From Trichoplax sp. H2 (lineage: Eukaryota), in the NCBI GenBank assembly GCA_003344405.1, contig NOWV01000011.1, positions 558,001-622,000 on the forward strand: a stretch of 64,000 nt of DNA. Reading direction: 5' to 3'. This document shows positions 1 to 61,204 of the stretch, piece after piece. The position numbers and the translations under genes are program-made. Within the stretch, counting starts at the first letter, position 1, and each line of letters starts with the position of its first letter. The notes under the pieces are model-generated. The model was given only the letters and a program-made list of their open reading frames with translations, had not been told where the DNA came from and did no database searches.

Positions 1-251
1 ACAGCCCGAATTAAGAGTACAATCTTCTGAATTTCGAGCTTAAGACGTCTATATAAGAGCCTATAAGTACAATGTTCACCATATCTAAGATTACAGTAAT
101 ATTCGTCTAGTGTTTATGCAGTTTATCAGATCTGTTCTAGTGAGAATTCAGGAAGAATACTTATCATCATACTTGAAATAACCAATACGGTACCTAAAGT
201 AAATCTTGGTTAGCTATCCTAACAATTTTCTACCCATTTCATTTGTTACAG

Positions 252-3200
252 AGATATTTTTACACTGGTTTTAAATATATTAACGCTAGCTATTAATATT
301 CTAATGATTGTGGATTGGAGAGCAGCTGAATTTGGCGTTGCTAATCCGTATGTAGAAATATTATTAATCTCTATTTTATCCAACTAATTATTTCAGAAAT
401 ACTTCAAACTAGTGTATCGAATCAATTAGCGAAATACTTTTATCATTCATTAAGCGCAATTTAAATCAACATCTCGTAATTAAATTTTATTCTATTCTGT
501 CTAAACTCTAGTAATGCAACTTTATTTGCAAATCCTATACCCGTGGTTACCTTACCTATCTATAATATATTACTGTTTACGATGGGACCGCTGCATAGTG
601 TGGCTTGTTTATTCATCATTATAAGCTATTTTCTATCAAATCAACCCAAATTACCTACAATTGATATTTGGGGATCAAGGTGACAAGATATTGCAGTCAA
701 ATTCTTCACATAACTCAAATATAAATGTTAAACCGTGCAGCTTATTTATTTTTGCTATCTTGGATCATAGGAAAAGAGAACAAGTTAATATTTTTGCCCC
801 AGCCAAGCGGCAACGAACATCCTATTTAGAGCATAAATTTCTGAGCTTTAAAACCTTTTATTTATTGGTAAATTCATTTATCTACAAATCTATATTTAAA
901 TAACTTGATATAAGTTAAAGCATTGTATCTAGCATCCTTCACCAGTTAATCAATTGATCTACACCACGTTATATCGATAGTAGAGTGATCCACTTTAAGA
1001 AATTATAGCGTTTACCAGTCCTTTATGAATTGCTAATAATTCACGAGCCAATTCTGATAGTACAGTTGCTAAGAAATACCTAAATTTTTTGCTATTTGAT
1101 CATTGTTTGTTTTAATTAGCTAACCTAAGGTTTCGTTTATGTCATGATGATTAGATATTGCTAGTCTTTTCTATCTTGGGCACTTGTTATCGTGGCTACT
1201 TTTTTGCCTTGCATCTCTTACACACGGTGGCCAACAATAATCTCTTTAGTCGAATTATTAAATCTGTGACATTAAATGGTAAGATTTGTTTATATTTATT
1301 GCATTGATCTTCATTAATTGCCTCCTTAATTCGAATTAAATCATAACTAATAGAGTTATTATTCTAATTATGGAATTGGGTTGTGTAATTGAGAGTTACA
1401 ATTATGATGTTGAAATTATGAAATTTGCCTTAGTAACTAGAATTGGATCATAACAGGGGTAGTGTTTAATAATCTGATTGCTAAATTGGGTCATATAGTT
1501 GAATTAAGAATTTAGTTATCTATAATTTTCCTAATTTAGATTAAATCGTTACGATAGAGCTATTGAAATCAATCTAGCTATTAAGTCGAAACAGGAGAAC
1601 TGGAATTAGCCAATTTTACCAGAAACAGCCTTCTTGATTGAAATTATTTTAACGGATGTACAAAATGATTCATCAGCTGTACTGAGTTCTTTAGTTTAAA
1701 AATGATCAGATTTACTTTTAGTTGTATCCTTAATTAGGATAAACATAGTATAGTATGTAGAATGGATGGTCTACAAGTCCCATTTAATCTTTTACATTAC
1801 GCTCTATTTTATCTTTTAAATCTTAAAATATATTTATCCATATTTTAACTTGACATTTGGCGGTCTACTCATTATTAATACATTTAGCAGTCTACTCTTT
1901 GGTAATCCAGTTAATAGCCCTCAATTAAAATTATTTCATCCTTTCGTTTTAGGGAGATCACTGATCGTTGTCGGCATTTTGGGAGTGATTATGATTTATA
2001 TCTATTCAGTAATTGCTTTCGCTAGCTTTAGAGAATGGTTTGATAGCAAGGGTGGTCTATTTTGTGGAACCCTTGGACAATGTTTTGTAACTGGTATAAG
2101 AGTTGGATTTCTTAGTGGTTTCCATGAGGTAAGTTGCCATTCACTTTTAAACTAGGATTATTGATAAGCTTATTACATCGAATTTCTTAACCCGTAATTA
2201 ATTTTTATCTAGAGTCGTTATAGTTGCATGTAATATTATATTAGATCACTAAGAAAAGATCTTTAACTTACAGTATCAATGAGTAATTATTGGTCATAGA
2301 ATCACAACCTTAAATATTTATTAGCCATCTACAAATAGTTTTCAGAACGAGATAGGGCTGTATATGTACATCTAGTAACACATTTCGATTCAATATTCTT
2401 TGTATATACGTGTATACTTAATATCAATTCTCGCTATGTTATGGCTGTTAGGCGCTTGGTCCGACGAATCAAAAATTTGAATTCTATGCCTGGAAATTAG
2501 TATTTGATTTATCGTTTTACATCTTAGTCACGACTATTGGTTTAAACATCATCTTTGGTATCATCGTTGATACATTCTCAGAATTGCGGCAAGAAAAGGT
2601 AAAACCAGTCGAACGAGCTATTTAAAAGAGGATAACAGCTGTTTCATGAACTTCATTATTCTAAAATTAAACTCTAACTGCTACTACTTTGAGATATTAA
2701 ACAAAATTGAGTTTGGCTTAACTTATAGCATTAGCATGTAAATCTTTTTCTCAGATAAATTAACATTTATCCCATTATCTTACCGTAGTATCAAACAGAA
2801 CATGATATGGAGACCTACTGTTTTATTTGTAGCAAGACAAACTACGAATTTGAACATTATGGAAAGGTAGTAATAGCATAAATTGCAAAATTAATAATAC
2901 CTGTAGATGAATTTATAGAAAGATATATGCGCTATTATTTCAGTTGTATGGCAAGCTAAATAAAGACCTACGTGTGTTTTCGAAATAGTCTCTTTTGCTA
3001 ATTAACGTATGTCTTTCCCACAGGGATTTTATCATCATGTTAAACATGAGCATAATATGTGGGATTACCTCTACTTTTTCATCCATTTGGATGATGTTCG
3101 AAAGAATGACTATACCTATATTGAATTATATGTTCATGAATTGGTAAGTTGCCCATAAACTTGTCTAAATTGAAAAAAGCTGAAAAGATTTCAAATCTAA

Positions 3201-3848
3201 ACCTTAGTTAATTTTCCGTCTCGATCTTTTTTGAACTTCTCTCTTCGAGAGCTAAGTAACGTAATTAATACTTGTTAGATTATACAGTTGATGTTGTATG
3301 CTCTATACTGCATACTCGCACATCGACTTCTTCTAATAGCAGCAATAACGACGATATTTTAATAACCAATTATATCATAATGCAGATGGAGAAAGATCAA
3401 TTAGAATTCTTTCCCTTGAATCAAGCCTTGACGCTACAAGATTTTAATACATCTCAAGAGCAGAAATTAGAAGATTTAGCTCTTAAAGTAGAAACTTTAA
3501 TTAAGCGACAAGAAGAAAATGTACGTATACTAATAGAATGCCGCGTATTAAAATAAAATTACAAGATTTGTAGTTTTAATGGACACTTTCAATTAGACAT
3601 GTAAAACTAGATACTGAGTACTGTATCGGCATTAGTGGAGACTCTTAGAAACTTATAAAGTGTGTTTCAATAATAATCTTTGCTCATGTTATACCCTAAA
3701 TTAGGACTTGGTTAAGAAAATGGAGAACAAGCGGCGGAAAGAACAAGATTGGGAGCAGATGCATCGAGATATTGCTATTAATAACGGACGTCAACGATCC
3801 AATACAGTTACCGGATTTAACGAATATGCTGCTGACGCTGAGGTTTAA
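252..3848 (+). CDS. IP3 receptor / ryanodine receptor superfamily Ca2+-release channel, C-terminal transmembrane/pore/zinc-finger region (5'-partial; N-terminus lies upstream of the window)
   Basis: In-frame GT-AG exons: 252-347, 512-679, 771-867, 1155-1278, 1953-2128, 2452-2598, 2789-2866, 3024-3143, 3386-3520, 3705-3848 (TAA). The translation contains YFFALHLL...IIKSVTLNGRSL (S4-S5 linker), LVFDLSFYILVTTIGLNIIFGIIVDTFSELRQEK (S6 and gate), DMETYCFIC...HHVKHEHNMWDYLYF (C2H2 zinc finger) and EFFPLNQALTL, all hallmark IP3R/RyR motifs. Confidence 0.93.
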
Positions 3849-5532
3849 TAACAAGTAGTCAACATCCATTTAAGTAAATGTGTATCATGCCTATGTATCT
3901 GTTATATGTGCTAAATGTGGAAGTAGCCAGGTTATTAAATTTTCCGTGTATCTCTCTTAGCCTATATGAAGAATGCTTTTATTAGTATACTCGACCAGAA
4001 CCATGTTATGCCTTGATAGTTTATAGCTATTATACGATTTATTTATTAATTTAAAATTTAATAGTATAATTTCATTCTACATTCTAAGAATTTTTAGTCG
4101 ATTTTTCAGTATTTTTAAATGAAGATAAGGATTCAATGTCATTATTTTGAGTAGTAGCTATATTTCATCATAACACTTGCATATATATTCTGAAAGAATT
4201 TAGTCTACTTCAAATTATTGACGTGTCTATTTTTTTTAGCAAGCATTTCATAATTTGTATTACACTTAAAAACAGCTCTTGTGATCCAAGCATAATGGAT
4301 TCATTTTGAAAATGATCATTGACGACCTAAGCCTAATAATGGCTTAGTAAATCCAAAAGCCGTATGGAAATCGTTAATAATTGTTCTTGCATGTTGCATC
4401 TTCTGGTGCTACGCAATTTTTATCATAACCAAGATACTTTTGCTAGCTCTATCAAGGTTATTTTAAGGCTTAAGGCCCTATTGCAAAATGACTTAACCTT
4501 ATTCATTTCTCGAATAATTAGTACTTGTTTATGTGTTTTAAGAAGTTTCGTATTGCTTAACGGAGATTGTAAGAATAGGCAATTAGGATTTATTGCTAGC
4601 TCTGCCAACTTTCCTACCTATTGTAGATTTCGAATTCTAAATCAGAGTTTAAATCAAGGTTGATATATTGGTATTTCAATCATGGATATCAATTGGTTTA
4701 GAAGCGTGATAATTTAATTAGCATTAATCTTGCACTCCTTCATTACTTTTCCTATAATTCTTATTTTTAAACATGAATTTTATTGAATCAGATGGCACTT
4801 GAATTGTCCGCAATGAACTATTTGTGGATATTAGCGTAGTCGTCATTAATGCACTAACTTTAATTAAGTAATCTAATTTATTAAGAAATTGATATTATTT
4901 ATATATCGATCCAAAGCGTCAATTAATAAAAAGAATTTTACCAGCAAAAAACAATTTTTTACTTATATATAACTCTGATTACATTGGTAAATGTAGTCCA
5001 ATTTCATCAATATTAGGATAATGCATTACTTATTTTGGGGGACATTATTGGCAAAAGGCATTATATAAATCATTGACGAGGTGGAAATGTTAAGTATGAA
5101 AATAGGTAATTTGCTTAGATTGAATTAAAATCAGAAAGAAAGCAAGAAAAAAAGTCAATATCAATATTACACTAGTATATCATATAGGCGTCTATAAACG
5201 ATATCGAACATTGTCTATCTAGAAATCATAGAACAAATTCAAATAAAAGAGTTTTTCCATATAGTCAAGACCATTTGTTTATCTTATAGAACATTTATGA
5301 CCATTAATATAATTTATAAATTTGGATATATAACAATTATCTGCATTAAAAAGGAAAAAAAATTTCTCTATTCAAGCATTGATCGCTAGGCGAGCATTTC
5401 AGAACAACATATCCTCAGCAATTTTAACTCTAGCATAAACTTGCGGTGTTATAAATTACTGTTGGGCCTATAATACAAGCAATTTGGAAATATCTTTTAG
5501 TGGAATGGATGGAGTATATATGAGTTAACAAA

Positions 5533-11500: not shown

Positions 11501-12936
11501 GTAGACTTGTGGGCATTATTGAAGAACGCTTAGCGACCGTATCGATCATCGGCCAATGATACGTTATAAGAACACTCTATCTTGCTTTTTAACTCTGACC
11601 GTGGGACAAGTTGATTTTTGAGTCAAACTGGGCTAATTGACAACTTCGTTTACTTCCGGGAGACAATTTTTGTACATGGAACAACTAGGGCACTATTCTA
11701 TAATTACCAATAGATTTAATGACAGGACGTTGCCCATTCAACAACACACCTATCTTGCATAACTTTCATGTCCAAAACGTAAACTAACCGTTATTGTAAC
11801 CATCCTAATTAATTTACAGTATGTTGCAAAGTGGAATCAAATCTAAAATTATGGTTGGCCAAAGGCAATTCTAAACATATCGATCCTATTCCTATTGACA
11901 TAAGCTCTTATTGATTGAATAGAAAGTAGGCAAGAAATCAACCCTGTTGATTACAGACGACATCCTAATGCATGAATTTTCCATACTAAAGGAGCAAATT
12001 AAGCACTATATAGCTTGATAATGGATAAAATGAAACGTAGTTCAGCTTGAAACTAGACCAATTTTAAATTGTATCAGTAAAATTAATTAGGCGTAAAAAA
12101 TAAAGAGAAAAATTGCAAAATTGGTGTTTCAACCCCAATGCTATTTGAGACTAGTCAAATAAATGTCAAGAATAATGCCTTATGATAGTCAGTTGAAAAT
12201 TATCAAGTGAAAAATGATGGAGAAGTAGATGAATAATGGATTTAAATTCTTATATCCTTCGCGTCTGATGAAAGGATCGCTTAAGCAATTATTGCACTAA
12301 ATTTGGATGTAAATTTCCATGTATCGATAACTATAATTAGCTCAGTTATACATTAATAGAAAAGATAGAATTGAAAAAATCAAATAGAACATTAATGAAT
12401 ACATACAGCTTCTATCTGAAAGCGGCATAAGAGCGTATACTTGGGTCAGTTGTTTATCAAATTTTGATCGCTTCGTTCAGAATATAAGCTATCATTTTAT
12501 GTTTTAGTGGACCATTTAAACTATATATAAAACTAGATAGGTTATAATTTATTACCTGCACACATGGAAATCGATCGAATAGAGCCGTCCAAAATGGAAC
12601 TAAAGCCATAAAAGCGCCAGGAACAATAGGTGGTACCCATTTCATTGCGTAAAGAAACAGAAATGATGGTGCGGCAACATGGAATAGACCCAATCCAATC
12701 ATTTTGAGATAATTATAAGGATTTAATAATGTTCGTCTTATAATTATGCTATTTTTTGCTCGGAAAGTTATAAAAAATAAAGCGACAAGAATAAATGCAA
12801 TAGAGCTGAAAGAAGACGAAAAAGTAACCAAAATGGCTGGATGAGGAAATTTTCTTAGAGCGTATTGTAACAAAAGTGGCGCTGTGCTATAGGTCAAGGC
12901 TACACTAATAGCCATAATAATCCACTCAATCTTCAT
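5533..12936 (-). CDS. EamA/DMT (drug-metabolite transporter superfamily)-like multi-pass membrane protein with a long Ser-rich C-terminal tail
   Basis: In-frame exons: 12936-12556, [12415-12407 candidate microexon], 9301-9046, 8394-8270, 7672-7561, 7451-7335, 7072-6891, 6798-6689, 6354-6060, 5703-5533 (TAA). About 10 hydrophobic segments in two repeats with EamA-like patterns (GLGLFHVAAPSFLFLYAMKWVPPIVPGAFMALVPFWTALF; LVILIGFIGV; YALYRQIGPINTDGLLVLIPAVTAVEEYFILRER). Confidence 0.78.
6395..6610. repeat. Intronic diverged direct repeat (2 copies, ~70 bp)
   Basis: cggtagtggatatatgatttcttgttgtggaactttaatgcacta...gcagatattatg (~6397) versus cggtagtggacacatgatttcttgtcatgaaactttattacacta...gcagatattatg (~6543). 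Confidence 0.75.
8443..8960. repeat. Intronic degenerate tandem repeat, ~110-115 bp unit, about 5 copies
   Basis: Recurrent ctgttgaa...tctataatttagc...gaaaa...gtagtagaaga...attgaaatgaaatt..taac blocks starting near 8443, 8555, 8670, 8769 and 8881. Confidence 0.7.
11140..11177. repeat. Perfect 38-bp palindrome in the long intron of the EamA-like gene
   Basis: GGATAAAAATTAGTAAACTAGTTTACTAATTTTTATCC is its own reverse complement. The left arm (aaactgggataaaaattag) recurs at 10898-10916. Confidence 0.9.
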
Positions 12937-15900
12937 AATGATGATGAATTAATGTCTTTCCTACTACGGATAGAGATTAAGCATTAAAATGAAGAAATGG
13001 TTTAAATTGTAATATCCGACAACCATCAACCGTCAATTCTAGACCTACTGGAAATGAATCATGCCACTTACCTATAATAAAATGGCTCTTCAACTTCAAG
13101 TAGATATTACTAATTTATAAGCTAAAATAAGATGGAAATTAATATAGATAGTTTATGATTCTTAACAGTGGATTTGCCTACCTACTAACTTTCTGACTAC
13201 AAATGAGAACTAGTTGTAGTTGTAGTCGAAAAGTCGGTTTGGGGTTAGGATGTATAGTTACTAGGTCTTGTCTATCGATAAACTAATTTTCTACTATATC
13301 AAAGTAACATCGGATGACAGTATTATTTGTACTGTCGATTTGGGAGTTAATTGATCTTTCAAACTAAATAATGCTAAACCATAGACGTGAAAGTTGATAC
13401 AACAATGGAAGAGCAGCAGTTTGCTTATGCCTTTCTATAGTGTGTAATAATTCCAAAACTAGAATACGACTGAAACCTTACTTTATTAACTATATTATCC
13501 TAGGGTGACATTGGAACAACTTGGTTTTATTGCAATATTTTCAGTATATTCGCTATTCATTAGCTATTGTTCACCTGCTGTTGTTTCAATTTTATTTACC
13601 ATCAAATACAATAATTGTAGGGCTATAGCTAAACAATTCTCCTTACATACGTGATCTAATGATTGATAGTTGGAATAATTTCGTCATAGATTAATGTTGT
13701 TATAAAATGGGCGTCTATTCTCCACGCCCGTTACTGTCGTTGACATTGTTGTTATCTAGAGCTGGATACAGGGCGTAACAGCTATATTTTATTGACCAAC
13801 ATGATTGAACTTTTAGATACTCTTCTTCCTTTAAGGTGTTAACTACAAAGAGTTACACTATCTTAATGCTATGATTCCTTTACTGTAGTGTGAAATAGGA
13901 CTGTTTTCAACGCTATACTTGATTTACTATCGTCACGTATTAAGATCTCACCATAATTGGATTCTTTCCATATCCCTCCCCTTCTTTTCTTTCTCAATTT
14001 CTTTCGGGAGTTAGATACCGTCATCATTCAATTTACATCGCATGTTGCATGATATTAGAAGACAAATGTCAACAAATGCTCTTAAATTGAGATGACTTAG
14101 TATCTAAGAACAAAAAAGCAACTGTTGTAATCAACATCTTTTTTCTTCGTCCTTTCAAACAGATCTATTACTTGAAATCAATCAATGGAGTAGGGGGTAA
14201 TATCGTTTTTACGCGTGTTCTTTTCTATTTTTAGTTCCCATATAAATAGGTAAGGTAGAATATCAAATTGAATTAAGATGAAAGGGATGGAATGAAATAA
14301 GTGGCAGTTCAAGAATATCATTACCGGTATAGAAATTAGCTATCTAAAGATAAAAAGTAGACGGTCCTTATAAAAGGATGAAATCATAAACTAAAGTTAT
14401 ACGTATAACACATGATTCATCTGACCTAGTTAAAGCCTTCTGCTGTAATTTATTCATTTAAAGTTTAATCATGGGCGCTGTACAGATGTATGAGTCATTA
14501 ATTCACCAAATTAAATAGACTATGCAGTAGACTATATATTGGTCAAGGTTATTATTCTATGTTAACCAACATAGGAATAAATTTTTAACAGATTGAATGA
14601 AAATTATCCAGGCTAGGACTATGATGGTCTATTGTTACCGTTGTCTATCAAATCATTTCCATAACTCTTTGATGATAACTATTACTACATTGTAAAGTCT
14701 GCTACTTGATATGTCAAATTACAGAATCGGTAATCAATAGAATGTGGACCAATCTACTATTGCAACCTCAGATTTTATTCATACCTTAAATTAAATTATC
14801 CAAACTATTTAAATTGCCTATTGAAAGTTTCTCCAACTGCAAACTGCTTTGATAACTAAAAAATACTACATCCCATAGATTGTAGTCTACAGACTCCTAT
14901 TTCGGTACAAGTGGTTAGAATAAATCACATATGTAACATTGTTGTCTTTTCATATTATTAATGCAAATGGTATATTATGTCATATCCAGTCGTTAGCTTC
15001 TCAATTAACCCTTTGTCATATATGCGACTGTTTTCCATATCAAGTAATACTAAAGCAAATGAATATTTACATTACGATCTTGTCATCGAATAAATGAATT
15101 TTATTAAAATCCAATTACAGTTGCACGGTAGTAAAACGAGGCATACTTGTATGACGCTTAAAAAGTATCTATAGACCTTTTCGATTCCAATGAATTTTGC
15201 CAAAATTCAATCTTACTATTTATTCGGTATACCGTAATAATTACGGAAGCTTACGTAAATGTAACATAAATACTCTCTAGCAGTACAATATCTATCTGCA
15301 TACTGTATTAAATCTGTCAAAGATTCGATAATTGTTTCTTTTTAATTCGAGTAGTTAACTGGGAGGCTTAAAAGTTTATTCATTTTAACTATTTTCAATG
15401 GTCACTCTATGCGCATTTCCTTCTTGTTATTTGCTACCAAAGTATAGTATTTCTGATAGTTTTTAACGTATTTATGACCTACATTACATTAACGCATAAC
15501 TACTGTATTGTAATTATAGCTATTAATACTCTCATATTAACTAAATATGATTATTAAAGTGTTCGTAATTTCTGTTTATGCACGAAATAATACGTTTACG
15601 GTTTATCTCGTCGCACTGGATCATGATTGCACTGTAGCGTGTTTCCAGTTACAAGTATTTACACTTCTGCACGTAAATGCCAATATTGCGGTCAAATTTG
15701 GTAAACGTAATGATATTGTAACAATCAACTTTAGTACAATTAAGTGACAACAGATGTATGTACATAATTTTGATTTTATTTTCAGAAAATAAAAAAGCTG
15801 TTCTCAAATGTTATTGACCAAATTTTGCTAATATTACATACGATAAACTGTGATTATAGAAGATAAACTTCATATTATTTTTCCTTAAGAACTACGTGAA

Positions 15901-26056: not shown

Positions 26057-26076
26057 NNNNNNNNNNNNNNNNNNNN
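26057..26076. other. Assembly gap (20 N)
   Basis: Run of n characters. Confidence 1.
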
Positions 26077-30188: not shown

Positions 30189-32883
30189 ATGTCTAATCCA
30201 TCGATTATTCGTAAGTATATCATTTAGCCAAGCATATGATTAAGAAATAGTTATTTTTCCTACAAGCAACTAAATTTATATCATGACAGAATAACTAGTA
30301 TTGACAGTGAATAATTAATAGTATATCCAATAGGAACGATTACTAGATTCAAGAGAAGGTGTTTGTAGTTTAACTGCCTAGCAGTGGCTTGACATATTGT
30401 ATAACATTATTTTTGATATTCTGTCTCATTCACATTGATTTCGCTCCACAAGATTAGATTATATCCTACTATTGTAGTTAAATCTAACATAGCTTTACTC
30501 TGGTAATGTCTACGATTACTATTACATTGATTAATGCTGATCGCAAACGAGTTTAAAACTGATATTTAAAAACCTTTTTAGGTCCTAAAGCTATATAAAA
30601 TTAAGTCAGCAATTATTAAGAATTTTTAAAGGCACTTCTGTTATTAATTTCTCAAAATGTGGTCGTATACAGTAACTTTCCTCCCATGTTAATATAATAT
30701 CTAAGATTCACTGGTAGAATTTATGTGTTGTATTTAATCAGTATCAAGATACGTCAATTGATAGGATAGCGCCTAAGCAGGCCTAAAATTCCTGATACAA
30801 TGTATATTAAATTTAAATCTAGACTGTACTGCTATAATAATAAATTATAGTATAGATAATAATTGTAGCATAAAGTAGCCTTTACTACGGATTAATTGGA
30901 CACATTTTATTTTCTTAAACCATTATCGTTTCCAGTATTCTGTAGTACTAACTGAAATATAGTCAAAAGCTTTATGTATGTTGGCGATACTCACATTCAG
31001 CCTTAGTTCTAACAGAAAGCCCAAATAGAAACAACTTTCTCATTCTCGTAGCTTAATTTCTTTAATCTTTTATAACCTTAGCAGTCATGAGAATTGTAGC
31101 GATAATTTTTTGTTATTCTGGTCGATATGAAAGTTTCTTAAGAATCCTTTAATTTTGCAATTTAGGATAAATATTTAGAAGTCTTTATTACGATGCTAAA
31201 TTGTGTTTAGAAGGTTTATAGACTGGATTTTGAGGGTGTTGCAGGCTCTCCTGTAGAATAAGATCCTTTTACTTGAATCTGTTTCATCCGGAATCAGAAT
31301 TGAATAGCATTTAACTGAAATAGATAATTAATCTTGCTGGTTAGACAATTATTGTGCCACCTGCAACGAAATAATATTTTTTCTTTGCTATTTTGCATAA
31401 TTATTATCCGAATCATTGATGGTGATGATTAGATATCTTCCTGTGTTCTCTTGTAGCAACAACAAACAACTGGAAATTTAGTCAATAGCTTTATTTGTGA
31501 GGGCAAAGAACTTAGAGTAGAAAATTTTAATTTCTCACCCTCCTTCCCTGTCATCTACATTTTTACTACAACTAGCAGTGCCTTTAAATAAATTATCCCA
31601 ATAGTTTCACTGTCATTAAAGTAATTGAATTTTATTTTTCCTCAATCGAAATGGGTGAAATATTGCGCTCTTTATGTGTTGAGGAGTTCTATAACGAATT
31701 TATTTCGATAGATCTTAAAAATATTTTCTTTTCTGATCAAATATATTTAAGATTACGTAAATAGTTTAATTTTTTACCTTTGATTTCGAAAGTGCTTTGA
31801 CTAAAATTTTGACCTTAAAATTCCTACAGTAAAGGCTTGCAGTTATGATTATAGTATACAGTAGATATCTTACCAACGAAAACTCTTCGTTTTTATGATT
31901 TTAGGTTCTGTGAGTTGTCGCAAATCAAGGCATAAGGCTGTTCCTTGTATCATTCATTGCGAATTTGAGAATGGATTAAAAAAGAAGATGGAACGTTTAT
32001 ATCGGCCTATGTTGGATTATATCAATTCTACTCGTCAATGCATATCTATAGAGGACGATTCGAAGCGAAGCTTTAATCGAAGCAGAAACAGTTCTTCTTC
32101 AAGTAAGTAACGCTTAGATAATAATGAATAAGATCTGAATTGAGAAGAAAGTATTTGCTCATTATATAATTGGGAAATTTATGGTAGAGCCATAAAAATG
32201 ACCGCAAGTAATTTTCTCAACTAGGAAATTGCTTAATGTTAAAATCCCAGTTCTTATTTGCTTGAATAGGTGAGGATATCAACCAATTTGATGTCGGTAA
32301 ACCCAAAATTTTATCATTAGGTATTCAACTCTTTCTTCATGAATGTAACTACGGAAATTACCATGATAACATCAGAAATTATCTACAGCAATCAATATGG
32401 AATATTAAACTTAATGTTGCATTGTCATCAACGTACATAAAATCCTGTCCTCCAAATGATAATTTAGAATCTTATGTTGCCAATGGGCCTATGATGCCTT
32501 GGTGGGCAATCAGGACAATCCATTCTGGCAAAGAAGTTATTCGCATTAATCTATTTGTTAATGATTTGGATAATATGTTGCAATTCTATGAAGTTATACT
32601 GCGGCAGCAACCTCAAATTAAGCGAAAAGATTTTTGCTGTTTTACCTTAGTTCGATATCCGGAATTTGATTTTCAATTTTCATTGAAAGCATTAAATAAG
32701 TTAAGTCCTAAGCCCACCCCAACTGATGATTTCTTACTAGAATTTTTTCACACTGGCTATTCATCGCTAGTTAATTTATTACCAGATTGCGTTACCCTAG
32801 TTAGCAAGAAATGCTGGAAAATAAAGGATCCGGAAGGTAACACTCTCCTATTACACGAAAAATCAGTTGTTATTAAAAATTAA
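30189..32883 (+). CDS. FAM124: FAM124-family protein
   Basis: Exons 30189-30210 (MSNPSII; start exon inferred from phase match), 31905-32102 and 32270-32883 (TAA). Motifs PWWAIRTIHSGKEVIRI, FYEVILRQQP..KRKDFCCF, FQFSLKAL, PTPTD..LLEF, LVNLLP, W...DPEGNTLLL parallel the recalled FAM124A/B core domain. Confidence 0.85.
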
Positions 32884-37600: not shown

Positions 37601-40600
37601 CAGCTTTAACTTGTAAGATAGTCTGGTTGCCCAATTGGATAGTTGATTTAATCCTAGTACCACTATTATGCAAAACCCCATACTAAAAAATTGAAGAATT
37701 AATAGTTGGAATGGATTGCTTAAGTAACGCAGAAGCTAAACTGAGAGTTATAAATTTATTGTACCTAGGAAGATAGAGAACTCTTTCGGCCACAACAAAG
37801 CCAACAGGAAAGAAGAGATTTAATGCTGGGATGAAAGGGATAACTAATAAAGCGAATCCAATAGTAAGGGCTTGACTTTCATTATCTTTCTGAATAAAAG
37901 AATGAGAAAAGTTAAAATTAATCCAGTACTCTAGTTAAACGATTACTCTTAAAAGATTAATTAAGGATCTACGCAGACTTATAAGAATAATAGAGGCATA
38001 AACTTACCTGTTGAAATTTTAAGAATGATGAGGCTAGGCCAGATAAATTGTGCATTAACCATAAATAAAAGCATAATGAGTAAAAATTACGTATGTCTGT
38101 TGGCTTTTCAATTAATGGAATTGAACCCATCTGCCAGTCGTAACAAAGATCGCGAGGATATAGTAACAACCAAAAATTAAACGCAGGTAAGTAACTCAAT
38201 GTCATAACTCGAGTTAGACGCTGTTTTGCAAAGATAGCTGGGTTATCATGTTGGCTAAAATTTGGCAGTTGGCCGTTCATAATCCATACGCGAAAGGACA
38301 TTAAGGCAATCAGCTGTAATTAAAGAAATGGTATTTAAGCATTACTAATTGAGCTACTATAAGTGTGGTAAGCGTTGTCAGTATAAAAAGTATCTATTGA
38401 ATTAATATATATGTATTCTATCTTGTATTAGAAGTCATTACATAGACTGCTACCAAACCAAATCGCCACATTAGAGAAGATCCATGAAGTTTTAAATAAT
38501 AGCTATCGAAATGATATAAGCATCTAATAGAAATTAAAAATCATCATTGGATGGGAACCTTATCTGTGATTTTTGTAATAGAAGTTATTTTAAATTTTTG
38601 ATTGAGGATATAACGTCTTTTCTACATATTTTTATTATAGAAAGTTACGACAGTGCTATAAAAAGTACAAGAATAAAATTTAAAATAGACGTTTATAAAA
38701 CTATCTATCTAATACATTATTGTTAAGAGTAGTACTGATGCGTAGATATGAATTAATTAATATACATGTATAAGGTTCACATTTAAGCTTTATTGACGCG
38801 ATAATGACGGAAGCATCTATCTAATTATATTTAGTTATTTATGATATCATTGGTATTTTACGTTAACAATATCCTTCGTAATAGAATACGATAGTAAATA
38901 TGATGGTACATTATGAATATTAGTCCTGTAACTAGACAAAATATTGTTTAACATACCTTCGAAAACCTTTTCTAGAAGCTACAGCAACATCGTAAGCCAT
39001 ACAAACCGCAATAACTGTAATACCTTGTTCTTTACTTAGCATCGCCACAAATGTAAAAATAAAACAATATAATAATTCTTTGATTGAGGTAGTCTTTGCA
39101 AACTCATCCTGTCAATAAAAATTAGTCAGAATGAATAGAAATTAACCCTCTATTTACTATATAATTCATGTGTTCAGTTTATCGATACATTGCCATTAAT
39201 ACCTTCATAAATAGATAATAGTAAAAATTAGATAATCACTACTGTTACTAGCATAAAAGGCTTAAGTTATGGATAAATTATTTACCAACATGTAAAGATT
39301 TATATTTAAGATGAGTGCAAGAAAGCAATTTTATTATAAAATTTAAGAATATAAATGGCCGCTTCTGTTTATTGAATAAGAGTTTTATACCCACGGTATA
39401 CTGTAGTTTATAACTAAAATTCAATATTTATTTTTCGAAAATGCCAAGATGGCTTATTATTGCAAGAAAAGGATAAAGGTGGGCTAACGAATCAATTTAG
39501 TCTTTAATTTAAAATAATTATTAATAGTACGATCTAAGTTTTACTGAATAGAAGAGATCAAATATGCTAATGTAGATTAATTTCGATTTATACATCAATT
39601 TCAAATTGTATATTCTGTATAACGTGTAAAACTACACATAGTCTAATACTATAATCTAATGCATCCAATGAGTAGAAACTATATTTATTCTGCCTAATCG
39701 ATAATAAAATAATACTTATTGATAATATAAATTACAACAGTATGTATATTTGTAAAATAAAGCTAGCTAGATGAAATAGATTTTGTTATTATATGCAGCA
39801 AACTATTATTCCAAATTAGGGCCCTACAAATAATTACAACGTGTACTGTACTGTAGACAAATATATAAGAACGATATTTATCCGCGTCTAAAAATTAAGT
39901 AAATGATACACTTTTCCCAATCGTCCTAATTGATTGTACTACTCATTCATTGTAATTCTGACATAAATGGTAAGTTCAAAAGACTAAGGAACACTTAATA
40001 CCAACGGTTTGCCTCTCATTTTGTAAACATCCTCTCCTTTTCATTGAAAAGAAGTTGGTATTGTATCATGTCTATGATCAGCGACCTAAATACTTTATAA
40101 ATATGGAATACACTTCTACAACTAGAATATTAGTGCTTTAACTACTTTGTAGTGGTTACTACTCTGAGCTTATTCCTTTCTCTTCTAGGATAAGTCTTTG
40201 CCGTTACAGATAGTATCTCTATAACTATATATGCAGACGATTTTAAATAAATTTCCATCTAGCTGTATAGCTTAAAATATAGCCAAACTTATCATCATAT
40301 TATAATAGCAATCATTCATTATCGGTCAAATGTAGTATTGCACAATCATAATTCAATAGAAATGAGCCAAATTAGATATGATGAGGCGATTAAGTCAATA
40401 AGAGTGTGTATCCATTTTTCAGGGGGCGATATTAATCAATTATAAAGAAATATTTAGCAACTAAATGAAACTGTTATTATTGGAAAAATAAATATCTAAC
40501 GCTGTTAATGGATCAAAATTATCTTAATGTCAAATTAAATAACATACTGATATTAAGAAGAACAATAATTAATCGTCCTCACTATACGTATACTTTAGCC

Positions 40601-43600: not shown

Positions 43601-45580
43601 GCATGTAATAAAGTATCGATTCAACATTTCAATAATTAATCTGACAGCTGTAATAAGAGTGCTTTCCTTGTCCTTTAAACTATAGTAATTTTTGTGTGCC
43701 ATCGCTAATTGCTTAAAGGGAGATCTTACTGAAACATTGGATAGATTATGAAACAGCTTTTCCAGATGTCTATCGATGCACACAAATGATAAACGACAAT
43801 ATCCTATTTCGGATATTATGATAACCTTGGAGATTGGACAGGTTGAAATTAAAAAAGTCTAGGAATCAGTTTACTGGACTTTTTTGTGCTATTTGATTTA
43901 GGAATTAAGGTATTACCCTTCTAGATTAGGCTGGTTTGAGGTTATTAGACATAGTGTGTGCGGCAAGATGAGAAGATGAAGCAAAATAATAATTATTTTA
44001 TGTTGGTATCTTAAGCAAACAATAACAGCATGGGCAAATAAAGGAATAAAGCATAGGATGGATAACTGGATTACTAATATAGCATTTGAACAATGGCTAA
44101 AGCGTAGAATACAATATTTTTGAAATGAATTTTTTTCCCATCAAAAAAATCACTATGCAACGTAGCCATTAAACGAGCGACTACAGTATTGAATACGCTA
44201 TTTCTTTCAACGGGAATGATACTGTATAAGAAATGGGTTTAATTGAGTTATGATAAGGAAAAATGAAGGAAAAGGCTTCATGTTTCGATAGTTGAATTGA
44301 AGCCTAAGGAACCCATTTTGATTCTGCACTTGGTGATGTTCCTATTTGACTAACGATAATGAGAACTTTTAATATGGACTAGGGTGTGATATGAAAGGAT
44401 TGAGTACAAGACGAATGGAATTTGTTATGTCTGTATAGAATTGATGTCCCAATTTTTTTATCTTTCAAATCAAAAAATTGCAAATGATTAAATTGAGCAG
44501 GAAAATAAAAGCAAAACGATTGTAAACGGTAGAAAATCAAAAAAAAGACAGCACGTATCGTTCGATGAGTAAAATATCTGACGATAGTTGCCCTTATGCT
44601 ACATAATATGTAAAAATTAAATGCAAGATGGAAATGATTTCTATTTTCAAATCGGGTTTTCAATCTCTATCATCTCGATGATTATCGAGCTCTCTATCAA
44701 ATTTAGGTTATTTTGTGTATATGTAATGCATCGATATTAATAGGTCTTTTATGTCGTTGAATAACAATTCTATCCACCTTAGTTCACTAGTAAAACATTG
44801 CTCAAAGTGATTATTACTTCGTTAAACAATAACAGTAATCCTTTAGAATAACAATAACTTAACTGCTTCGGTATGGATAGGATGGACAGCGAAGAGGATA
44901 GCAGTTAGAAAAGCTAATTGGATGGACATTCGTAGCAAACGATGGCAGATAAAAAGGAATATCGAGCAAACCATTGCATGAAGAGCGATATTGACGATAT
45001 GATAGCCATTAGGATGTAATCCATGCAGGTAGAAATTCCATCGAAATGTTGCAATGGTGAAAGGGCGATAAGATTTATGACTATTAGGGTTAGACATGGA
45101 TGTCCCCCAAAAATCATGATGAAAAATTTGCCACCAACTGGCATTACCAACAACATCTTGATTCTCGACAATGGCGTAGATATCATCATGAACCAATTGA
45201 CCATCTAAACTATTGATATAGCATAAACAACTAATGATAAAAGTGAATCCAAGGCTAAGATAGAAGGATAATTGTGGTAGATAGGGTAGATAACATGGAA
45301 TCAAGGGTGATAATCTATTGCTTTCATTAGTCTTTTGGCCATGGATAAAGGCTGAACATGATGAGCGATTTTTATGAGTTAATGTCGTTGTTGCTGTCGA
45401 TGATGTCGTGTTTGTTGTTGCCGTTGTGTTGGCCATCATGGTATGATTAATTTTACTTGGTGTACTCGATGTTGGCTTGCCTTGAAGAATAGTCACTTGA
45501 TGATGATGATGATTATGCGATAGCCATGATTCAATGGGCTGTTCACGTTTTTTAGGGCGAAAACGGGATGAAAACACCAT
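34696..45580 (-). CDS. TMTC1: Protein O-mannosyltransferase of the TMTC family (GT-C membrane domain plus TPR repeats), TMTC1-like
   Basis: Exons include 45580-44864, 41608-41535, 40637-40604, 39108-38957, 38502-38442, 38313-38008, 37889-37765, then TPR exons down to 34809-34696 (TGA). Motifs: [16 protein letters not shown]...[69 protein letters not shown] and LCYDWQ favour the TMTC1 paralog group. Confidence 0.92.
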
Positions 45581-47108
45581 GATGGTGGCGATGTCAATGG
45601 ATTAAGAATATTTGCTAATGCGATTATTCCTGCGGATTTATATTGTAATAATTGATTATGTTCTGTTCTGGCTTAACTCTTTTTTTTATCCTGGCGCTAT
45701 ACACGTGGTACATTGATGTTGATATAATGTAGAGGTGGATTCTATACATGTTTATTTTTCGGGTTAAATGATACAAAAGTTATCTAAATAAAACAAGTTG
45801 ATTCTCTCTCCGAACAATATGACATTCCTTTCTTTTCAACTCTTCCCCGCAACGACGTCATATTATGTCCATATTTATTACGCATGATCTACGGATAAAC
45901 CAATCAATCGCTTATTTGATGAATGGAAAATAGGAAAATTGAGTAATAATGAGTTGGGCAGGGAAGTAGAGATATAAAATGATCAGTTTTATGTACTTAC
46001 CATCAAAAGCTTGGATAAATACAAGATACAAATATTCATCGCTACCGTAGCGAATAGGAAAAGTTAACGAGAGATTTCTATTACAGACTGGATAGATTAA
46101 GCGAGGGCATTTATCGTTTCGGTCATGATTTTATTAGCAATTAGATAATACTGCTATTTTTATGAAAGGATCAATCATTTTTATCATCTATTTTCACTTC
46201 CATCTGCCTGTAAATGATATGTATCAAGTTGAGTTTGCTCTAGAGTTGCAAGTTATTGCAAGCTTTTGATTCCCATATGCTTCCTATCACGTTACCTTAC
46301 GTATTTCTTGTTATCGTTGAATAACTTTCTATTCAGTTGGATCATGTCTTTATTAATGGGAATAATAACGATAACAGCTATAACTTATAAGATGAATAAA
46401 ATGATAATCAGCAGATGTAGTATAGCAATTTCAACTGCAATAGATCAATACACCGTCATCATTTGTGGTAAGAACAATTTACCGTGGTTGAATCACGACA
46501 ACGCGTTTGCTAGAAATGCTATCTATCAAAGTGATGTAATTAAGTAATCATTATAATGAGTAAGGTAAATGAATTTTGGCATCTTTTATTGCCATATCAA
46601 TGCTAAGATAGAGTCTCAGGTTGCATTGTATGCTAGCTAGAACAATATATTATTTTAAATCTGAGTAAATGACCAACTTGATGTCATGAGATTGATATGG
46701 CCAGTCATGGAAACATAGCTAGTAAATTGCTCTGCAAGACATGGAAATTACAAAATTGAAGCTATCGATATCAAAAGTTAATGTCAATGTTATTTAACTT
46801 AAAAAGTTGCAATAGTTGGAGAAAGAACGGTCAAAGTAAATTAGATTATCGTCATCATAGATGTTCTAGGACACAATTCGGTATTTCATAAACAGGAACA
46901 AAGAAAAATATTTTAAATTCACCTTCAATCTGGCAGCTCAATTATTGATGAAAATTTGATTGTATCATAATACTTTAAGAATAGTAGTCATTTTCTATAT
47001 TAAGATATCGAGTAAACGTACGAACTAAATCAATTTAGATTACTGTCCATAATAAAACGATGCTGTTAGATTGAGTCGCTACGTAAGTGTTTAATGCTAG
47101 GGGTAATA

Positions 47109-49764: not shown

Positions 49765-52700
49765 TCACACATTATACACATAGTAAGCTACATTATTTTC
49801 CGCAGTTGAGGCTTTTCTGGTCTCTTCTGAGTTATTTTCTGTTATTGATATTTTCGAAGTATCTTTTACGCCATTCTCCTCTGTTAAAGCTATCTGCGCC
49901 TCTTCTACCGTATTCTCCCCTGATGATGTTACTTCCACGTCATTCTCAGCTATTGAAACATTCCTAGCCTCTTCTATGTTGTTCTCTGTTAATGAGATAT
50001 CGGAAGTCTCTTCTGCGATGGTTTCAGGTGTTATTGCTTTTCTTATCCCATCTACATTACTTCCTACGCTATTATCCTCTTCTTTAGCTGCATCATCAAT
50101 AAAGGTAACCACTGATTTTCTTTTGGTCGATTTTTTAGGTTTATCATGATTTACTAACTTTCGCATAGAACTTCTTGCTGGAATTGGTGGAGATGATGGT
50201 GCAGAGCCATTTGGAGTATGGATACCAGCATCGGAGATACATCCTGCTGGAGCTCCACGAATTGGAGCTGTACTTGCTTTACGAAATGTATACTGTGATA
50301 TACTTCTCATGCAATGCTCCTTGGTGTTTAATTCAGGCTTGAAAAGAATAGTATAGACTTTGGGTAAGAAGAGGAATACCAAAACGCATAACGCAAAGCA
50401 GGCTATACCCAATGAGGAGAATACTGCTCGTAAAACGCCATCAGTACCATAATAACCAGGAATAGTCAATATACATATCATCCACATACAGATAGAACAG
50501 AAGCAAATGTATTTAGCTTCATTGAAATTATTTGGTAGATTCCTTGTTCTCCATGCTAGAAATGAACAAATTGTGCCTAACAAGCAAAAATAGACTGCAG
50601 AAAAGGTAATGCCTAAATGTGTGTCACTTTCACAACGTGAGAACGCTTCTTTACCCTTGCAAATTTTATCTCGAAGCCTTGGTATATCAAGGATACTACC
50701 AACAATAACAATAATGACTGAAACTGATGTAATTCCAAAGATGAATAATAATTGCATATAACTTTCACGATTTTTCGATTTACCAAAAGGTGTACGACTC
50801 CTTAAGCGGACTTGAAATATTTTAGACACCGAATTGGTTTTAGTCAACAGAATTGCCATACAAAAGGTAATTGATGTCGCAAAAATCACAAATTGAACCT
50901 CACAGACCACATCGTTTGGATCATAGACAAATGCTGGAGCAACTGCTAATATATAGTAGACACTGATTATATGGAGAGTGGATAATAATCGATTTGAAGC
51001 TTTGACAATCGGTGTATCGCGATATCTCAAGAAAATGCAAGCGACAAAGGTGGTCAAAAGGGCGATTAAAAATACGCCAACAAGAATGGCGATACTAACT
51101 GGATGATCCCACGATACTCGAGTTATGGGTATAGCCACACAATAAGATCGATTTGCTACTGGTTGTTCGCAAAGTCCGCAAGCTTGGCAATAGACAGTGG
51201 TGCCATTCGATACTTCTCCATCGCCGCATTTTGCACATTGCCAACAGCAAGACTGACTATCCGGTCTAACTCGGCGATAGCCTAATTGACATTCAAAGCT
51301 ACATCGAGATGAAGGAATATTTGTTGCTGTACCGTTTTGAAAGCGCACAGCTTGGTAATGGAGGTTTAATTTGTTATTGTACCAATCTCCAACCGAAACA
51401 AAGTAGCCGCAATTGGGGTTATTTTCATCAAATTGAAGATTAATGATAGAATAGTTCCTAGTGATCTCGCCATTATCGTTAAACGATAACATATTTCCTT
51501 GAGAATTTTTAATCTTGATATGACGTAAAGTATTGAGATACGCTTTACGATTCAAATGAATTAAAGGTGGACAATAACTTGAGGTACAATTTAATGATTG
51601 ATGTAAAGCTTCAGCGATAGCATTGACTCCATCAATAATGAAATCAACTTTATTTCCTTCCGAGTTAACAAAGTAGACTGATTTGCCACAATTTTGAGGC
51701 CGATTGTCGTAATTACTTCGTACTAACGTGCATGTTTGCTGTGCGAAGCGACAACCAAGTTTTGCTTCTACCAATTGTGTTAAGGATGGATGATCACCTT
51801 GAGCTAAATGATTTTGAAAATAGCGATAAAATTCATCGGATGGCTGACTGCGAGGGACTACACCAAGCAACCCTCCTACAATATCTCGTGATAACTTTAA
51901 TAATTCTGCGCTATCACTCCAACTTTCTGTACCAATCCATATTTTACCAGTTAGACCTTGATTATTTGCTTCTTTTAATACAGATAGAGCTTCTTTTTCT
52001 TGAGCAATTAAAATGATTGCCGAGACATTAGATAGATCGGCAAGTTGGCTAATGATAGATTGTATACGCTGTGTATTATTGGTCTGAGGAAAGTACAAGT
52101 CTTTAGCAACACAAATACTCTTCAGGCGTAATCGTCTTTGTATTAAATCCATAAATAAACGACTATAGATATCATCGACTGTAACTGTTGCAATATAGGT
52201 CCAACCGAATCCGTAAATTAAATCGGCAATCGCTCTAGCTTGTTGATGATCTGATGGTAAAGTACGAAATAAATTATCATACTGTATTCTGTCGATAAAG
52301 ATGCCCGAAGTAGCACCGTAAGTAACGGCTGGAATACTGAAGACACCTAAGAATAAAAATTCGATATTTCGTTAAGAAAAGATCAGAGTAAAATTCTTAT
52401 ATCTTTCAGTTTTTAGTGAATAGCCTCTCTCTATGCAATATTAATGTATCATCAGATCTCGTTTTTAATTAATTTCCGACCACAAAATACTAATGTGTTT
52501 TAGCCGTTTGCTACCCGTGATTGTAACAAGAATATTTAAGGTATAACGTATCTACATTCGAATACGTAATTTAAAGAATTAAGGAATCGTAGTAGGAAAC
52601 GAAAATTTAATAACTATAATTAGTTAAAGGGAGTTTACTGTTTGAAATTTACGCATACTATTTCAAAGAATTTTTATGATAGCGAATATTTCTATACTGT

Positions 52701-54459
52701 ACTAATATCTGTCGTAAATTGGTGATAAGACTTGGAATTAAATATCTTTAACAAATATTTACTAGTGCAAAATTACGTGTCGTAAAAGTTATGCAGAAAT
52801 CTAATACTCCTCATCTTTCTATCGCTATGAAACCAATTCTTTCACCTCAAAACTCAGAGAAGGATTTTAATATAACAGAGAGCGATTGTTGAAAATTACA
52901 CTAACTACAGTATAGCTTGATTATATCGATAAATTAGAGATATAATAGCTACAATTTATCTAAAGAGGTTTCAATGTGTTCTTTGTATTAGGAGCTTACG
53001 CTAATAACGAAATTTTTCCAATTAGCTTTTAATCGACAATTTGTAGAAGATATTCATTTTTATTTGCATCTTTGCTGAATTGTATTTAAACGATTCATGC
53101 TCCGATTTTAACGTTCATAATGCCAAATTATGTAGTATAACGGAAATAACCAACAAATTTAACTCATTTTCCAACGAAAAAATTAAAACGATCGATGTTT
53201 TACTTAACGCGTTATTTTATGTTTACAGGTGGTAATCTTTAATAAATAGCCATTTAATTAATAAGCTAGAGTTAATTAGATACTTTCTGCACCTACGCTA
53301 CACGACACAAATAGTCTAAAGTTACATGATGCAGGTTGTTAAATCACTTACAGGTCATCTCTGTTACCTAATAATGTGGCTACGTGAGATAGAGAAGGTC
53401 TTCTCTATCTTACGTAATAATGCAGAAAATTTCGCAGTGTTTGTATAGTACACATACTTCAAAATTTTCTAGACATTGTCAATCTAAATTGATCTACTGC
53501 CTTAAGAAGGTGTAAAAATTTCTTAACTGTGTAACGCTTAATAGCGATGATATCGATTTCTTTCATGCCAATATTTTGGGGACTTTGTTGAACAAAATCA
53601 AATAAGAGCGATGTTTCTGTGACAGAGTACTAAACTTAACGTAAGAGTGTAGCCTGTCTCACTTATAAAATCATTCTATTGGATTAATTTTTAAAATGGT
53701 CACGTTTTAAATCATCTGATATAGAGTCAAGATTACCAATTGTTTATTAAGACAGATTGTAGATTGGACTGCATGTAAACGGCTAAACCGCAGGAGTCAC
53801 GCACGATCAACAGATAATAAGATCATAATATCATATAGGAATATTATTACACACTACTATCGGATGTTATGATGATCAAGCAATGGCTAATTGCTTTTTT
53901 AAATCATTTTTTACTTACCTAGGACGTTAGTGGATGGTAAAGTTGTTGAGCTAGATGATGGGCCTACAACTGCAGCAACGCCTAAGGTGTTGTTCTGGTC
54001 CAGTCGAATACTACTCATATTACAGCCATATTTATTCAGCAAGTTGTAACCGATACTACCAGTGACTAGATCTTGTGTATATGGAACAAAGTTTAGAATA
54101 TCTTTCAAGGTATGTCTTACATTGGAGCAAGTATCACGAATATGATAACCTAATGTAATGTTGGGCAATAACTGAGTAGCATTATTGACTTTTTCAATAG
54201 CATAGATCATGGCAAGAGCTTGCTCAATCCCTCTAATACTGGTTATTTGACATGATTGTTTGCTTTGATCGTAATCTAAATGAGCTGGAAATAAGCCTCC
54301 TAAAAAAATTTGGCCTTGATAAACCTCGTAAACGCCACCGGAAGATGTTAAACTACTGGAAATTTGTCCATAACCTCCGTGTCCATAGCATAAGATAATA
54401 ACCATCCAAGTTGTTATAAATTTGGTTGAAAAAAACAGACCATAACTGTTAGTCAGCAT
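49765..54459 (-). CDS. Class C GPCR (mGluR/CaSR-like): signal peptide, Venus flytrap, cysteine-rich domain, 7TM; complete, 2 coding exons, 1040 aa
   Basis: Exon 1 54459-53919 (LGGLFPAH, AMIYAIEKVNN..LLPNITLGYHIRDTC, VVGPSSSS) splices in phase 1 to exon 2 52346-49765 (VTYGATS, LFRTLPSD, FGWTYI, SRCS..C..G...CCWQC, TPIVKASNR, TRNLPNNFNEAKYI, FLPKVYTILFKPELN). Confidence 0.95.
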
Positions 54460-60299: not shown

Positions 60300-61204
60300 C
60301 TAATCATAATGGATACAATAAGACATATGATATTGATGGAAGTAGAAGCAATTCGTTCAGAAATTAGCTCATTGTTATTAGTTAAATTATTAAATAATTA
60401 AACACTAGAATGATAGTTACACATTGGCTAAAATGAAACAAAACGCTGTCTTAATGTACTGTATGTTATCAATAGAATCCGTTAAATACTTTAATAATAC
60501 CATACTGCTGGTAATATACTCGTAAATAATAAGGCTAACATGTAGGAATATTTTACTCTTACTGTAGGAATCAATCGAATTTATAATAAAATTTTCTACG
60601 TACGAATATGTTTCTATCTTTAGCTTTTGAATTAAGTTTAAGTTTAATAAGTGTAATAATGCGTTAATAATGTTGGTGTAAGGTATACATACATACATTC
60701 AGTTGTATCATACATTTTTTAATATGTAATTCTATATGCAATTCTGAAAAGCTAATGATGATAAATGTAGGTATAAATGTAAAGTTACTTTTCCATAAAA
60801 CGCTTGATCTGAAGGATTAACGATTGAAACTCAATACTTTATGGTTTGATAATGATAAGATCAAATCTAAATTGTCTTTTTTGATCTGAAAGGAATAATG
60901 AGATAATCGTGCTCAATTCTCTTAGAAACAGCACTATAACTTTATTCTTATTACTCTCTTTCATACCTCAGCAATCATTTAATAGCATGTATGTATTATA
61001 GGCGACTGGTAAATTCTTTAAAGGGCCAAGAAAATAATCAATAGATGCAAAAAAATGCACTGACATTTCACTTTTCAATGTAGGTGATATATTATATTGT
61101 TTGCAACAACAAATATTTTGAAACCTGTGTTACAAATAATTTGAGCAATCTTCAATTCTAACATGATCGATCTTGATTATAAAAGTATTCATTTTCAAAG
61201 TTTA

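Follow-up and report, generated by a model that had tools for sequence, protein, structure and literature searches.

A Trichoplax channel of the IP3R/RyR superfamily shares a shortened, glycine-poor selectivity filter with its bilaterian relatives

According to the available part of a study of the leech (PMC7992859), the bilaterian ancestor possessed three kinds of intracellular channel, IP3RA, IP3RB and RyR (the first two written here as IP3R-A and IP3R-B). The same text describes IP3R-B as missing from vertebrates, Drosophila and C. elegans and states that its physiology "remains to be determined"; one leech member, ip3rb2 (Heath-Heckman et al. 2021), marks touch neurons. The canonical channels carry the filter GGG(V/I)GD, and the accessible portion of another paper (PMC2995152) presents the GGGxGD(x) stretch as a major determinant of conductance, with point changes in it altering conductance. 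Here we analyze a gene at the start of a 64-kb stretch of Trichoplax sp. H2 DNA (contig NOWV01000011.1, positions 558,001 to 622,000, forward strand), referred to as the window, in which this filter appears in a different form. The window is AT-rich (~30-38% G+C) and eukaryotic, and its positions 252-3849 hold the last ten exons of an intact, transcribed Trichoplax channel gene.

The pore of the predicted protein is divided between two exons on the + strand, 1953-2128 and 2452-2598, bordered by AG/GT. Read in the frame from 1955, the first of them encodes S5 (~1955-2038), a luminal loop (2039-2071), the pore helix (2072-2113) and the filter SGFHE (2114-2128), an assignment based on the translation, an AlphaFold2 model and a HMMER alignment to ITPR2. 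This exon ends in ...GIRVGFLSGFHE. A phase 0 GT..AG intron of 323 bases (2129-2451) follows directly after the codon for the filter Glu. The next exon begins with ALGPTNQKFEF... and carries the post-filter loop and S6 with its gate region (...LNIIFGIIVDTF...), as identified by matches to Pfam Ion_trans, ITPR2 and RyR.

The alignment to ITPR2 places a two-residue gap within the glycine run, so that SGFHE stands opposite GGGVGD. The aligned strings are g-f-l-s-g-(gap, gap)-f-h-e-a-l and g-l-r-n-g-g-g-v-g-d-v-l, with pairs S/N, G/G, gap/GG, F/V, H/G, E/D, A/V and L/L. This reproduces an alignment made by eye in the first-pass annotation of the window, which had already proposed a filter two residues shorter with its glycine run lost. 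By the same HMMER comparison, the long luminal loop typical of IP3R-A is absent (5 residues between the aligned blocks of S5 and pore helix, compared with 55 in ITPR2), and the S6 gate region and CxxC...H-x4-H zinc ligands align free of gaps. For the last 286 residues, the AlphaFold2 model reaches a mean predicted local distance difference test score (pLDDT) of 79.3. S5 forms a helix at residues 21-49 and the pore helix lies at 61-74, both blocks with pLDDT of 80-90. After the pore helix the model breaks for two residues, F-H-E-A then forms one helical turn, and S6 begins at residue 88; a further long helix covers residues 214-269 of the C-terminal tail.

Because the filter sits exactly at an exon end, a wrong junction could mimic a deletion. 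The splicing evidence comes from 23 listed sequencing runs, 20 of which cover part of the stretch. Three are recorded as RNA (X6, X9 and X15, from one study), and splicing was read from these together with X1, the best-covering run, which is unspliced. In all three RNA runs, contigs 2.7-3.2 kb long have nine introns spliced out, each of them GT..AG after the stated shift of the cut. The joint 2128|2452 (recorded as 2126>2450, cut +2) is present in every one, with 323 bases removed between GT and AG and 147 letters on the shorter side. The exon pieces abut at contig record positions 689|690, no letters between them are reported in the contigs of the three runs, and the spliced product reads ...GFLSGFHE|ALGP.... 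The in-frame splice predicted earlier from the letters is therefore exact in coordinates and translation, and the RNA contains neither a hidden exon at this joint nor one that restores GGGxGD. X1 spans the introns with 0 of the 9 joints, which indicates that the spliced contigs derive from RNA rather than from a processed copy in the DNA.

The rest of the gene is intact as well. The joined reading frame runs open through ten exons, from position 252 up to two TAA codons at 3847, and ends in ...AADAEV. Coding for GGG, GG.G. or G.?G.G[DE] is absent from the six frames of the introns 1279-1952, 2129-2451 and 2599-2788. Among 38 variants listed over positions 1-4400, three fall in the coding sequence (2020 C>T, 2050 G>A, 2806 T>C) and all three are synonymous. 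Variant density is 2.3/kb in coding and 11.2/kb in non-coding positions, a rough comparison since intron coverage comes mostly from one run. Together with the gap-free alignment to ITPR2, the open frame and the synonymous variants bear out the initial impression that S6 gate, zinc finger and splice sites are intact and that the gene is not decayed.

The window product matches the tail of TRIADDRAFT_55241 from Trichoplax adhaerens (P0268, 2,486 residues) at 370 of 371 residues; the one mismatch is Lys/Gln. A 56-residue placozoan-like fragment, P0001, is identical at 43 of 46 residues; its pore helix and GFLSGFHE are the same as in the window product, and all three differences lie in the luminal loop. 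Only the channel part of the gene is inside the window, and the full domain set was read from P0268, whose precomputed Pfam list contains Ins145_P3_rec (PF08709), MIR (PF02815), RYDR_ITPR (PF01365), RIH_assoc (PF08454) and Ion_trans (PF00520) and no SPRY or RyR-repeat entries. Exon 2452-2598 by itself matches Pfam Ion_trans (E 6.6e-06). In searches of PDB sequences, this S6 exon alone finds ITPR2 (E 6.1e-08) and RyR (E 2.5e-04), the pore exon alone gives matches at chance level only (RyR at E 0.07, comparable to photosystem PsbZ at E 0.17), and full-length P0268 finds ITPR2 (E 4.9e-97) and RyR (E 7.8e-56). The 286-residue tail matches ITPR2 (E 1.7e-38) and RyR (E ~1.4e-30 to 1.7e-30, the latter RyR2) in HMMER. 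Foldseek places IP3R3, IP3R1 and RyR as the top matches of the model, with probability 1.00 and a template modeling (TM) score of ~0.48 on the query. On its domain set and on the presence of S5, pore helix, S6 and zinc finger, the window product is a predicted channel of the IP3R/RyR superfamily.

How widely is the short filter distributed? A HMMER scan with the pore exon, run over 1.84 billion representatives, returned 291 proteins at E <=0.001. Of the best 150, 104 lack GGG at the filter, 26 carry it and 20 do not cover the site; named relatives include amphioxus, octopus and gastropods. When the octopus orthologue was used as the query, 117 of the 120 matches listed (from 176) had pore strings without GGG, the three exceptions being two sponges and one JGI protein. 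We counted from the pore strings because a search for GGG anywhere in the last 700 residues over-counts: it flags eight of the 120, and five of these (P0156, P0164, P0172, P0185 and P0189) have pore strings that lack it. The matches span molluscs, annelids, nemerteans, brachiopods, flatworms, an acoel, hemichordates, amphioxus, sponges and Trichoplax. Neither vertebrate, insect or nematode proteins nor cnidarian, ctenophore or echinoderm names occur among the matches listed (120 of 176 and 120 of 169), in searches whose word index misses distant relatives.

An alignment of 59 channel domains (MAFFT) puts the two-residue gap at the identical place in all GGG-less rows. Sponges (Oscarella, Corticium) and choanoflagellates (Salpingoeca, Microstomoeca, Didymoeca) have SGGGLGEAL at this site and Trichoplax has SG--FHEAL, with identical flanks, L-G replaced by F-H and two glycines gone. 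Every bilaterian relative sampled has a glycine-poor loop two residues shorter, with the consensus G-[LF]-[IVL]-x-x-[LMIF]-[FYH]-[ED], and in a large lophotrochozoan subgroup the filter is nearly fixed as GLIGD[LMI]F[ED]. The Trichoplax version, its flanks still identical to the sponge sequence, may be the least-changed form of the short filter. The short luminal loop between S5 and pore helix is likewise general among these relatives; the first-pass annotation was right about its length but not in treating it as a special trait.

To place these sequences we built an IQ-TREE phylogeny from 56 rows and 424 columns. Alignment columns 295-353, which span the filter plus the loop that follows, were taken out, and three rows with very long branches or fragmentary sequence were excluded (ENA_P0099, unk_P0049 and JGI_P0301, the last with the pore GGGLV). 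Trichoplax falls in a clade of 38 rows together with an acoel, amphioxus, hemichordates and lophotrochozoans (molluscs, annelids, nemerteans, brachiopods and flatworms), with an ultrafast bootstrap (UFBoot) of 100 and an SH-like approximate likelihood ratio test (SH-aLRT) value of 99. All 38 rows lack GGG and have the filter two residues shorter. The sponges (GGGLGE) are sister to this clade (94/95); next out come Capsaspora CAOG_04510 and two further rows, GGG-less and with no acidic residue, then the choanoflagellates (GGGLGE), and fungal IP3R-like rows form the outgroup (100/100). The tree requires at least three changes of the GGG state. Since the short filter loop is found in every sampled bilaterian relative, the simplest account of the clade would be one two-glycine deletion that predates the placozoan/bilaterian split and has been kept since. 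The filter was first taken to be peculiar to this gene, a view that the 38 clade rows and the 117 octopus-orthologue relatives overturn.

Within the clade, the most conserved stretch is S6, whose columns are identical in 35-38 of the 38 rows. The pore helix is conserved together with its two Cys, and the Gly at its end never varies. The column equivalent to the canonical Asp holds Glu in 23 rows and Asp in 7, making it acidic in 30 of 38. Directly before it, 32 of 38 rows have an aromatic residue or His (Phe 19, Tyr 8, His 5), the His rows being Trichoplax, an acoel, two amphioxus and one Saccoglossus paralogue (SFHE). Val (GTN) stands right after the filter position in 86 of 98 short GGG-less fragments that come from other organisms, which is what a read-through GT donor yields. 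This suggests that the intron directly behind the filter codon is old and its donor site conserved.

Two further observations concern sequences outside the animal clade or of uncertain origin. The unicellular holozoan relatives Capsaspora CAOG_04510 (P0271/P0283), P0275, P0279 and P0281 also have a GGG-less filter two residues shorter; most of these rows lack the acidic residue as well, and they are placed outside the animal clade. Either the deletion recurred in this group or these proteins represent an old paralogue, as far as their sequences indicate. The 196-residue ENA fragment P0150 has surroundings like those of sponges and choanoflagellates, yet its filter, GLMD-SLGP, is two residues shorter; it might represent an intermediate state in a lineage that the sampling missed.

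The clade appears to correspond to the named IP3R-B subfamily, as we infer from its taxon spread, from elimination and from a second IP3R-like gene in Capsaspora. The Capsaspora row in the tree is CAOG_04510 (XP_004347257.1), an accession other than the one given for Capsaspora IP3R-A, XP_004347577.1 (PMC9522344). A phylogeny of the kind that the first-pass annotation had proposed puts the gene in a GGG-less clade that probably already bears a name. The available text of the leech study (PMC7992859) contains 0 mentions of "pore" or "selectivity filter," and we found no treatment of the IP3R-B pore or filter elsewhere in the literature searched. Nor did we find a printed statement that GGG is lost across the whole placozoan and bilaterian IP3R-B branch, in a search that lay outside the subfamily-defining paper of Alzayady et al. 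2015. No papers on TRIADDRAFT_55241 turned up in the literature search, and nothing usable on Trichoplax IP3R/RyR inventories, for which supplements were not covered. The gene is already public, in a flawed model, and its probable subfamily is named; what seems to be new is that loss of the glycine filter is common to its placozoan and bilaterian branch.

What would such a filter do? We think it probable that the protein is a working cation channel with changed conductance or selectivity, and we favor this over a pore-dead scaffold; the first-pass annotation had named both possibilities. The gene would encode a subunit of an intracellular channel, ~2,500 residues long and the placozoan member of the IP3R-B branch, that would assemble as a tetramer in the endoplasmic reticulum (ER) and conduct cations. 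Conservation of S5, the pore helix, the near-invariant S6 gate, the zinc-finger linker and, where canonical channels have Asp, an acidic residue makes tetramer formation and cation conduction most likely. The filter would be shorter, wider or differently lined, ringed by aromatic or His side chains together with Glu, and both conductance and Ca2+/monovalent selectivity would be expected to differ from IP3R-A and RyR. In other words, the good preservation of the pore speaks for conduction, and the loss of glycines for a changed filter geometry.

Several observations weigh against this interpretation or the phylogeny beneath it. The end branch of Trichoplax is long (1.27). Forcing Trichoplax to group with sponges costs 21.7 log-likelihood units (delta lnL) and is rejected marginally (p-AU 0.043, approximately unbiased test), for a group chosen after the tree had been seen. 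Between subgroups the filter columns reach ~2 bits of entropy, far above S6, and the acidic residue is missing at the Asp-equivalent column in eight of the 38 rows. The IP3R-B label rests on taxon distribution and elimination, in a tree without labeled IP3R-B, metazoan IP3R-A or RyR rows. In work by Alzayady and colleagues, the Capsaspora IP3R-B reportedly showed no IP3 binding or Ca2+ release in assays. Electrophysiology or Ca2+-release results for any clade member were not found in the literature searched. Finally, given that the GGGxGD(x) stretch sets conductance, as the accessible portion of PMC2995152 describes, losing two glycines could abolish conduction altogether.

A broader proposal extends the interpretation from Trichoplax to the whole branch. 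One ancestor would have lost two filter glycines after the sponges had branched off and kept a triad of hydrophobic, aromatic/His and acidic residues, so that placozoan and bilaterian IP3R-B would form a third functional class of animal ER channels with permeation different in kind. Such channels could be poorly Ca2+-selective, could serve as a monovalent or counter-ion pathway, or could have much lower conductance. We regard this as possible, though on balance doubtful.

The strongest rival to a conducting channel is a naturally pore-dead subunit, in which the IP3R scaffold, with its ligand-binding and regulatory domains and tetramer interface, is kept without conduction. Such a subunit would serve for sensing, scaffolding or modulation, either by itself or in mixed assemblies with conducting ones. 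The run of glycines that marks the filter of all IP3Rs and RyRs studied has been lost, point changes in this stretch suffice to alter the conductance of canonical channels (PMC2995152, in the part available), the Capsaspora relative CAOG_04510 has neither GGG nor the acidic residue, and eight clade rows lack the acidic residue. The reported absence of Ca2+ release from the Capsaspora IP3R-B fits this view too. However, near-identity of S6 and its gate across the clade and retention of the pore helix with its two Cys are hard to explain if nothing permeates. The Glu or Asp kept at the luminal mouth in most rows and the almost fixed lophotrochozoan filter likewise point away from a dead pore, which we consider unlikely.

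A second rival makes the filter an adaptation specific to Trichoplax. The first-pass annotation had noted the His directly before the conserved Glu and suggested a channel sensitive to pH or metals. In a tetramer, the luminal mouth would carry four His-Glu pairs, judging from the homologous position, and the resulting ring could confer sensitivity to protons or transition metals; the placozoan-like fragment P0001 has the identical motif. The distribution of residues at this column weakens the idea. Because Phe, Tyr and His all occur there across the clade, and His is also present in an acoel, amphioxus and Saccoglossus, the Trichoplax His looks like one acceptable aromatic, with the column aromatic rather than titratable in character. 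We judge a His-based sensor improbable.

The remaining explanation, that a wrong splice site, a hidden micro-exon or a pseudogene created the short filter, draws on the exon-end position of the filter and on the public gene model being wrong elsewhere (it skips exon 512-679), but it is most improbable in view of the direct RNA junction, the lack of GGG-type coding in the introns, the open frame, the synonymous variants and the equally short filter in full-length spliced proteins of many phyla. A hidden exon was dismissed on the direct joint in the RNA contigs, barring another dominant isoform in other tissues.

The other exons of the gene, all on the + strand and separated by GT..AG introns, complete the channel domain. 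The first in the window (252-347, joint 347>512) has an open frame and encodes a membrane region that precedes the pore; at 252 the RNA contigs end loosely, pointing upstream, and the gene extends 5' beyond the window. Exon 512-679 adds 56 codons with a hydrophobic transmembrane segment. Its joints, 347>512 and 679>771, are present in X6, X9 and X15, and the matching segment is present in homologues; it is left out of TRIADDRAFT_55241 (P0268), and adding it corrects the public model. Exon 771-867 (joints 679>771 and 867>1155) covers a cytosolic/transmembrane linker region, and exon 1155-1278 (joints 867>1155 and 1278>1953) covers S4 and the S4-S5 linker, ends in ...SVTLNG and aligns to ITPR2 2382-2400.

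Downstream of S6, exon 2789-2866 extends S6 into the cytosol and supplies the CxxC half of the zinc finger (2819-2830), as placed by its joints and the ITPR2 alignment. The H-x4-H half (His codons 3036-3038 and 3051-3053) and the linker domain are on exon 3024-3143, which is likewise bounded by joints and aligns to ...HIKSEHNMW... of ITPR2. Exon 3386-3520 (joints 3143>3386 and 3520>3705) begins the C-terminal helical, coiled-coil-like tail, corresponding to the model helix at residues 214-269. The last coding exon is 3705-3849; the coding sequence ends at 3846, ahead of two TAA codons, the first of them the stop at 3847-3849. The 3' untranslated region reaches at least 4400, RNA contigs being unbroken from 3705 to 4400.

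Several other genes lie in the window. On the - strand, a class-C G-protein-coupled receptor (GPCR) gene occupies 49765-52371 with an 868-codon frame matching ANF_receptor, NCD3G and 7tm_3 (E 1.3e-51 for 7tm_3), and an upstream frame at 53911-54480 (-) carries the start of its ligand-binding domain. A second class-C GPCR stands in tandem at 57535-60303 (-), a 922-codon frame with ANF_receptor, NCD3G and 7tm_3 and a long, low-complexity C-terminal tail rich in Asn, Ser and Thr; the open reading frame at 57484-57999 (+) is an antisense echo of it. An exon of a TMTC-type O-mannosyltransferase lies at 37969-38319 (-) (DUF1736, E 8.1e-33), and the frame at 44843-45601 (-), which has no Pfam match, looks like the multi-pass N-terminal part of such an enzyme. 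Open frames at 32266-32883 (+) and 12457-12948 (-) match the FAM124 domain (E 1.5e-60) and an EamA-like transporter domain (E 1e-07), respectively. An assembly gap of 20 N at 26057-26076 falls where the window is richest in G+C (22-28 kb, 0.37-0.39).

IP3R-B is an animal-wide subfamily that has been lost in vertebrates, flies and nematodes. If its whole placozoan and bilaterian branch lacks the glycine filter, its members cannot be assumed to be ordinary Ca2+ release channels. The Trichoplax filter differs from that of sponges and choanoflagellates only centrally, which makes the Trichoplax protein a good test object.

Among known systems, the closest is IP3R-B itself, the third holozoan branch beside IP3R-A and RyR, which occurs in Capsaspora, sponges and many invertebrates. 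Proteins of the clade described here resemble it in size (~2,500-3,000 residues), in their IP3R-type domains without SPRY or RyR repeats and in a fitting taxon spread; in contrast to the present comparison of pores, the leech study (PMC7992859), in its available part, treats the subfamily by phylogeny and expression only. The vertebrate channels ITPR1-3 (PDB 3JAV, 6DQJ and 9YMZ) share overall architecture, S5, pore helix, S6 and zinc-finger linker with the Trichoplax protein, at 29-36% identity in the channel domain. They differ in the filter, GGGVGD as opposed to the shorter SGFHE, and in the length of the luminal loop. Outside the window, HMMER aligns equivalents of the ITPR2 IP3 contacts R265, R269, R568 and K569 that are kept in P0268; T266, T267 and Y567 are replaced by Pro, Val and Ser, and the segment with the other basic contacts is left unaligned. 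RyR1-3 likewise have a short loop between S5 and pore, and S6 and zinc finger are common to both. However, P0268 is half the size of a RyR (2,486 as opposed to ~5,000 residues) and has no RyR-specific repeats in its Pfam list, its filter is not GGGIGDE, and its similarity to RyRs is below that to IP3Rs.

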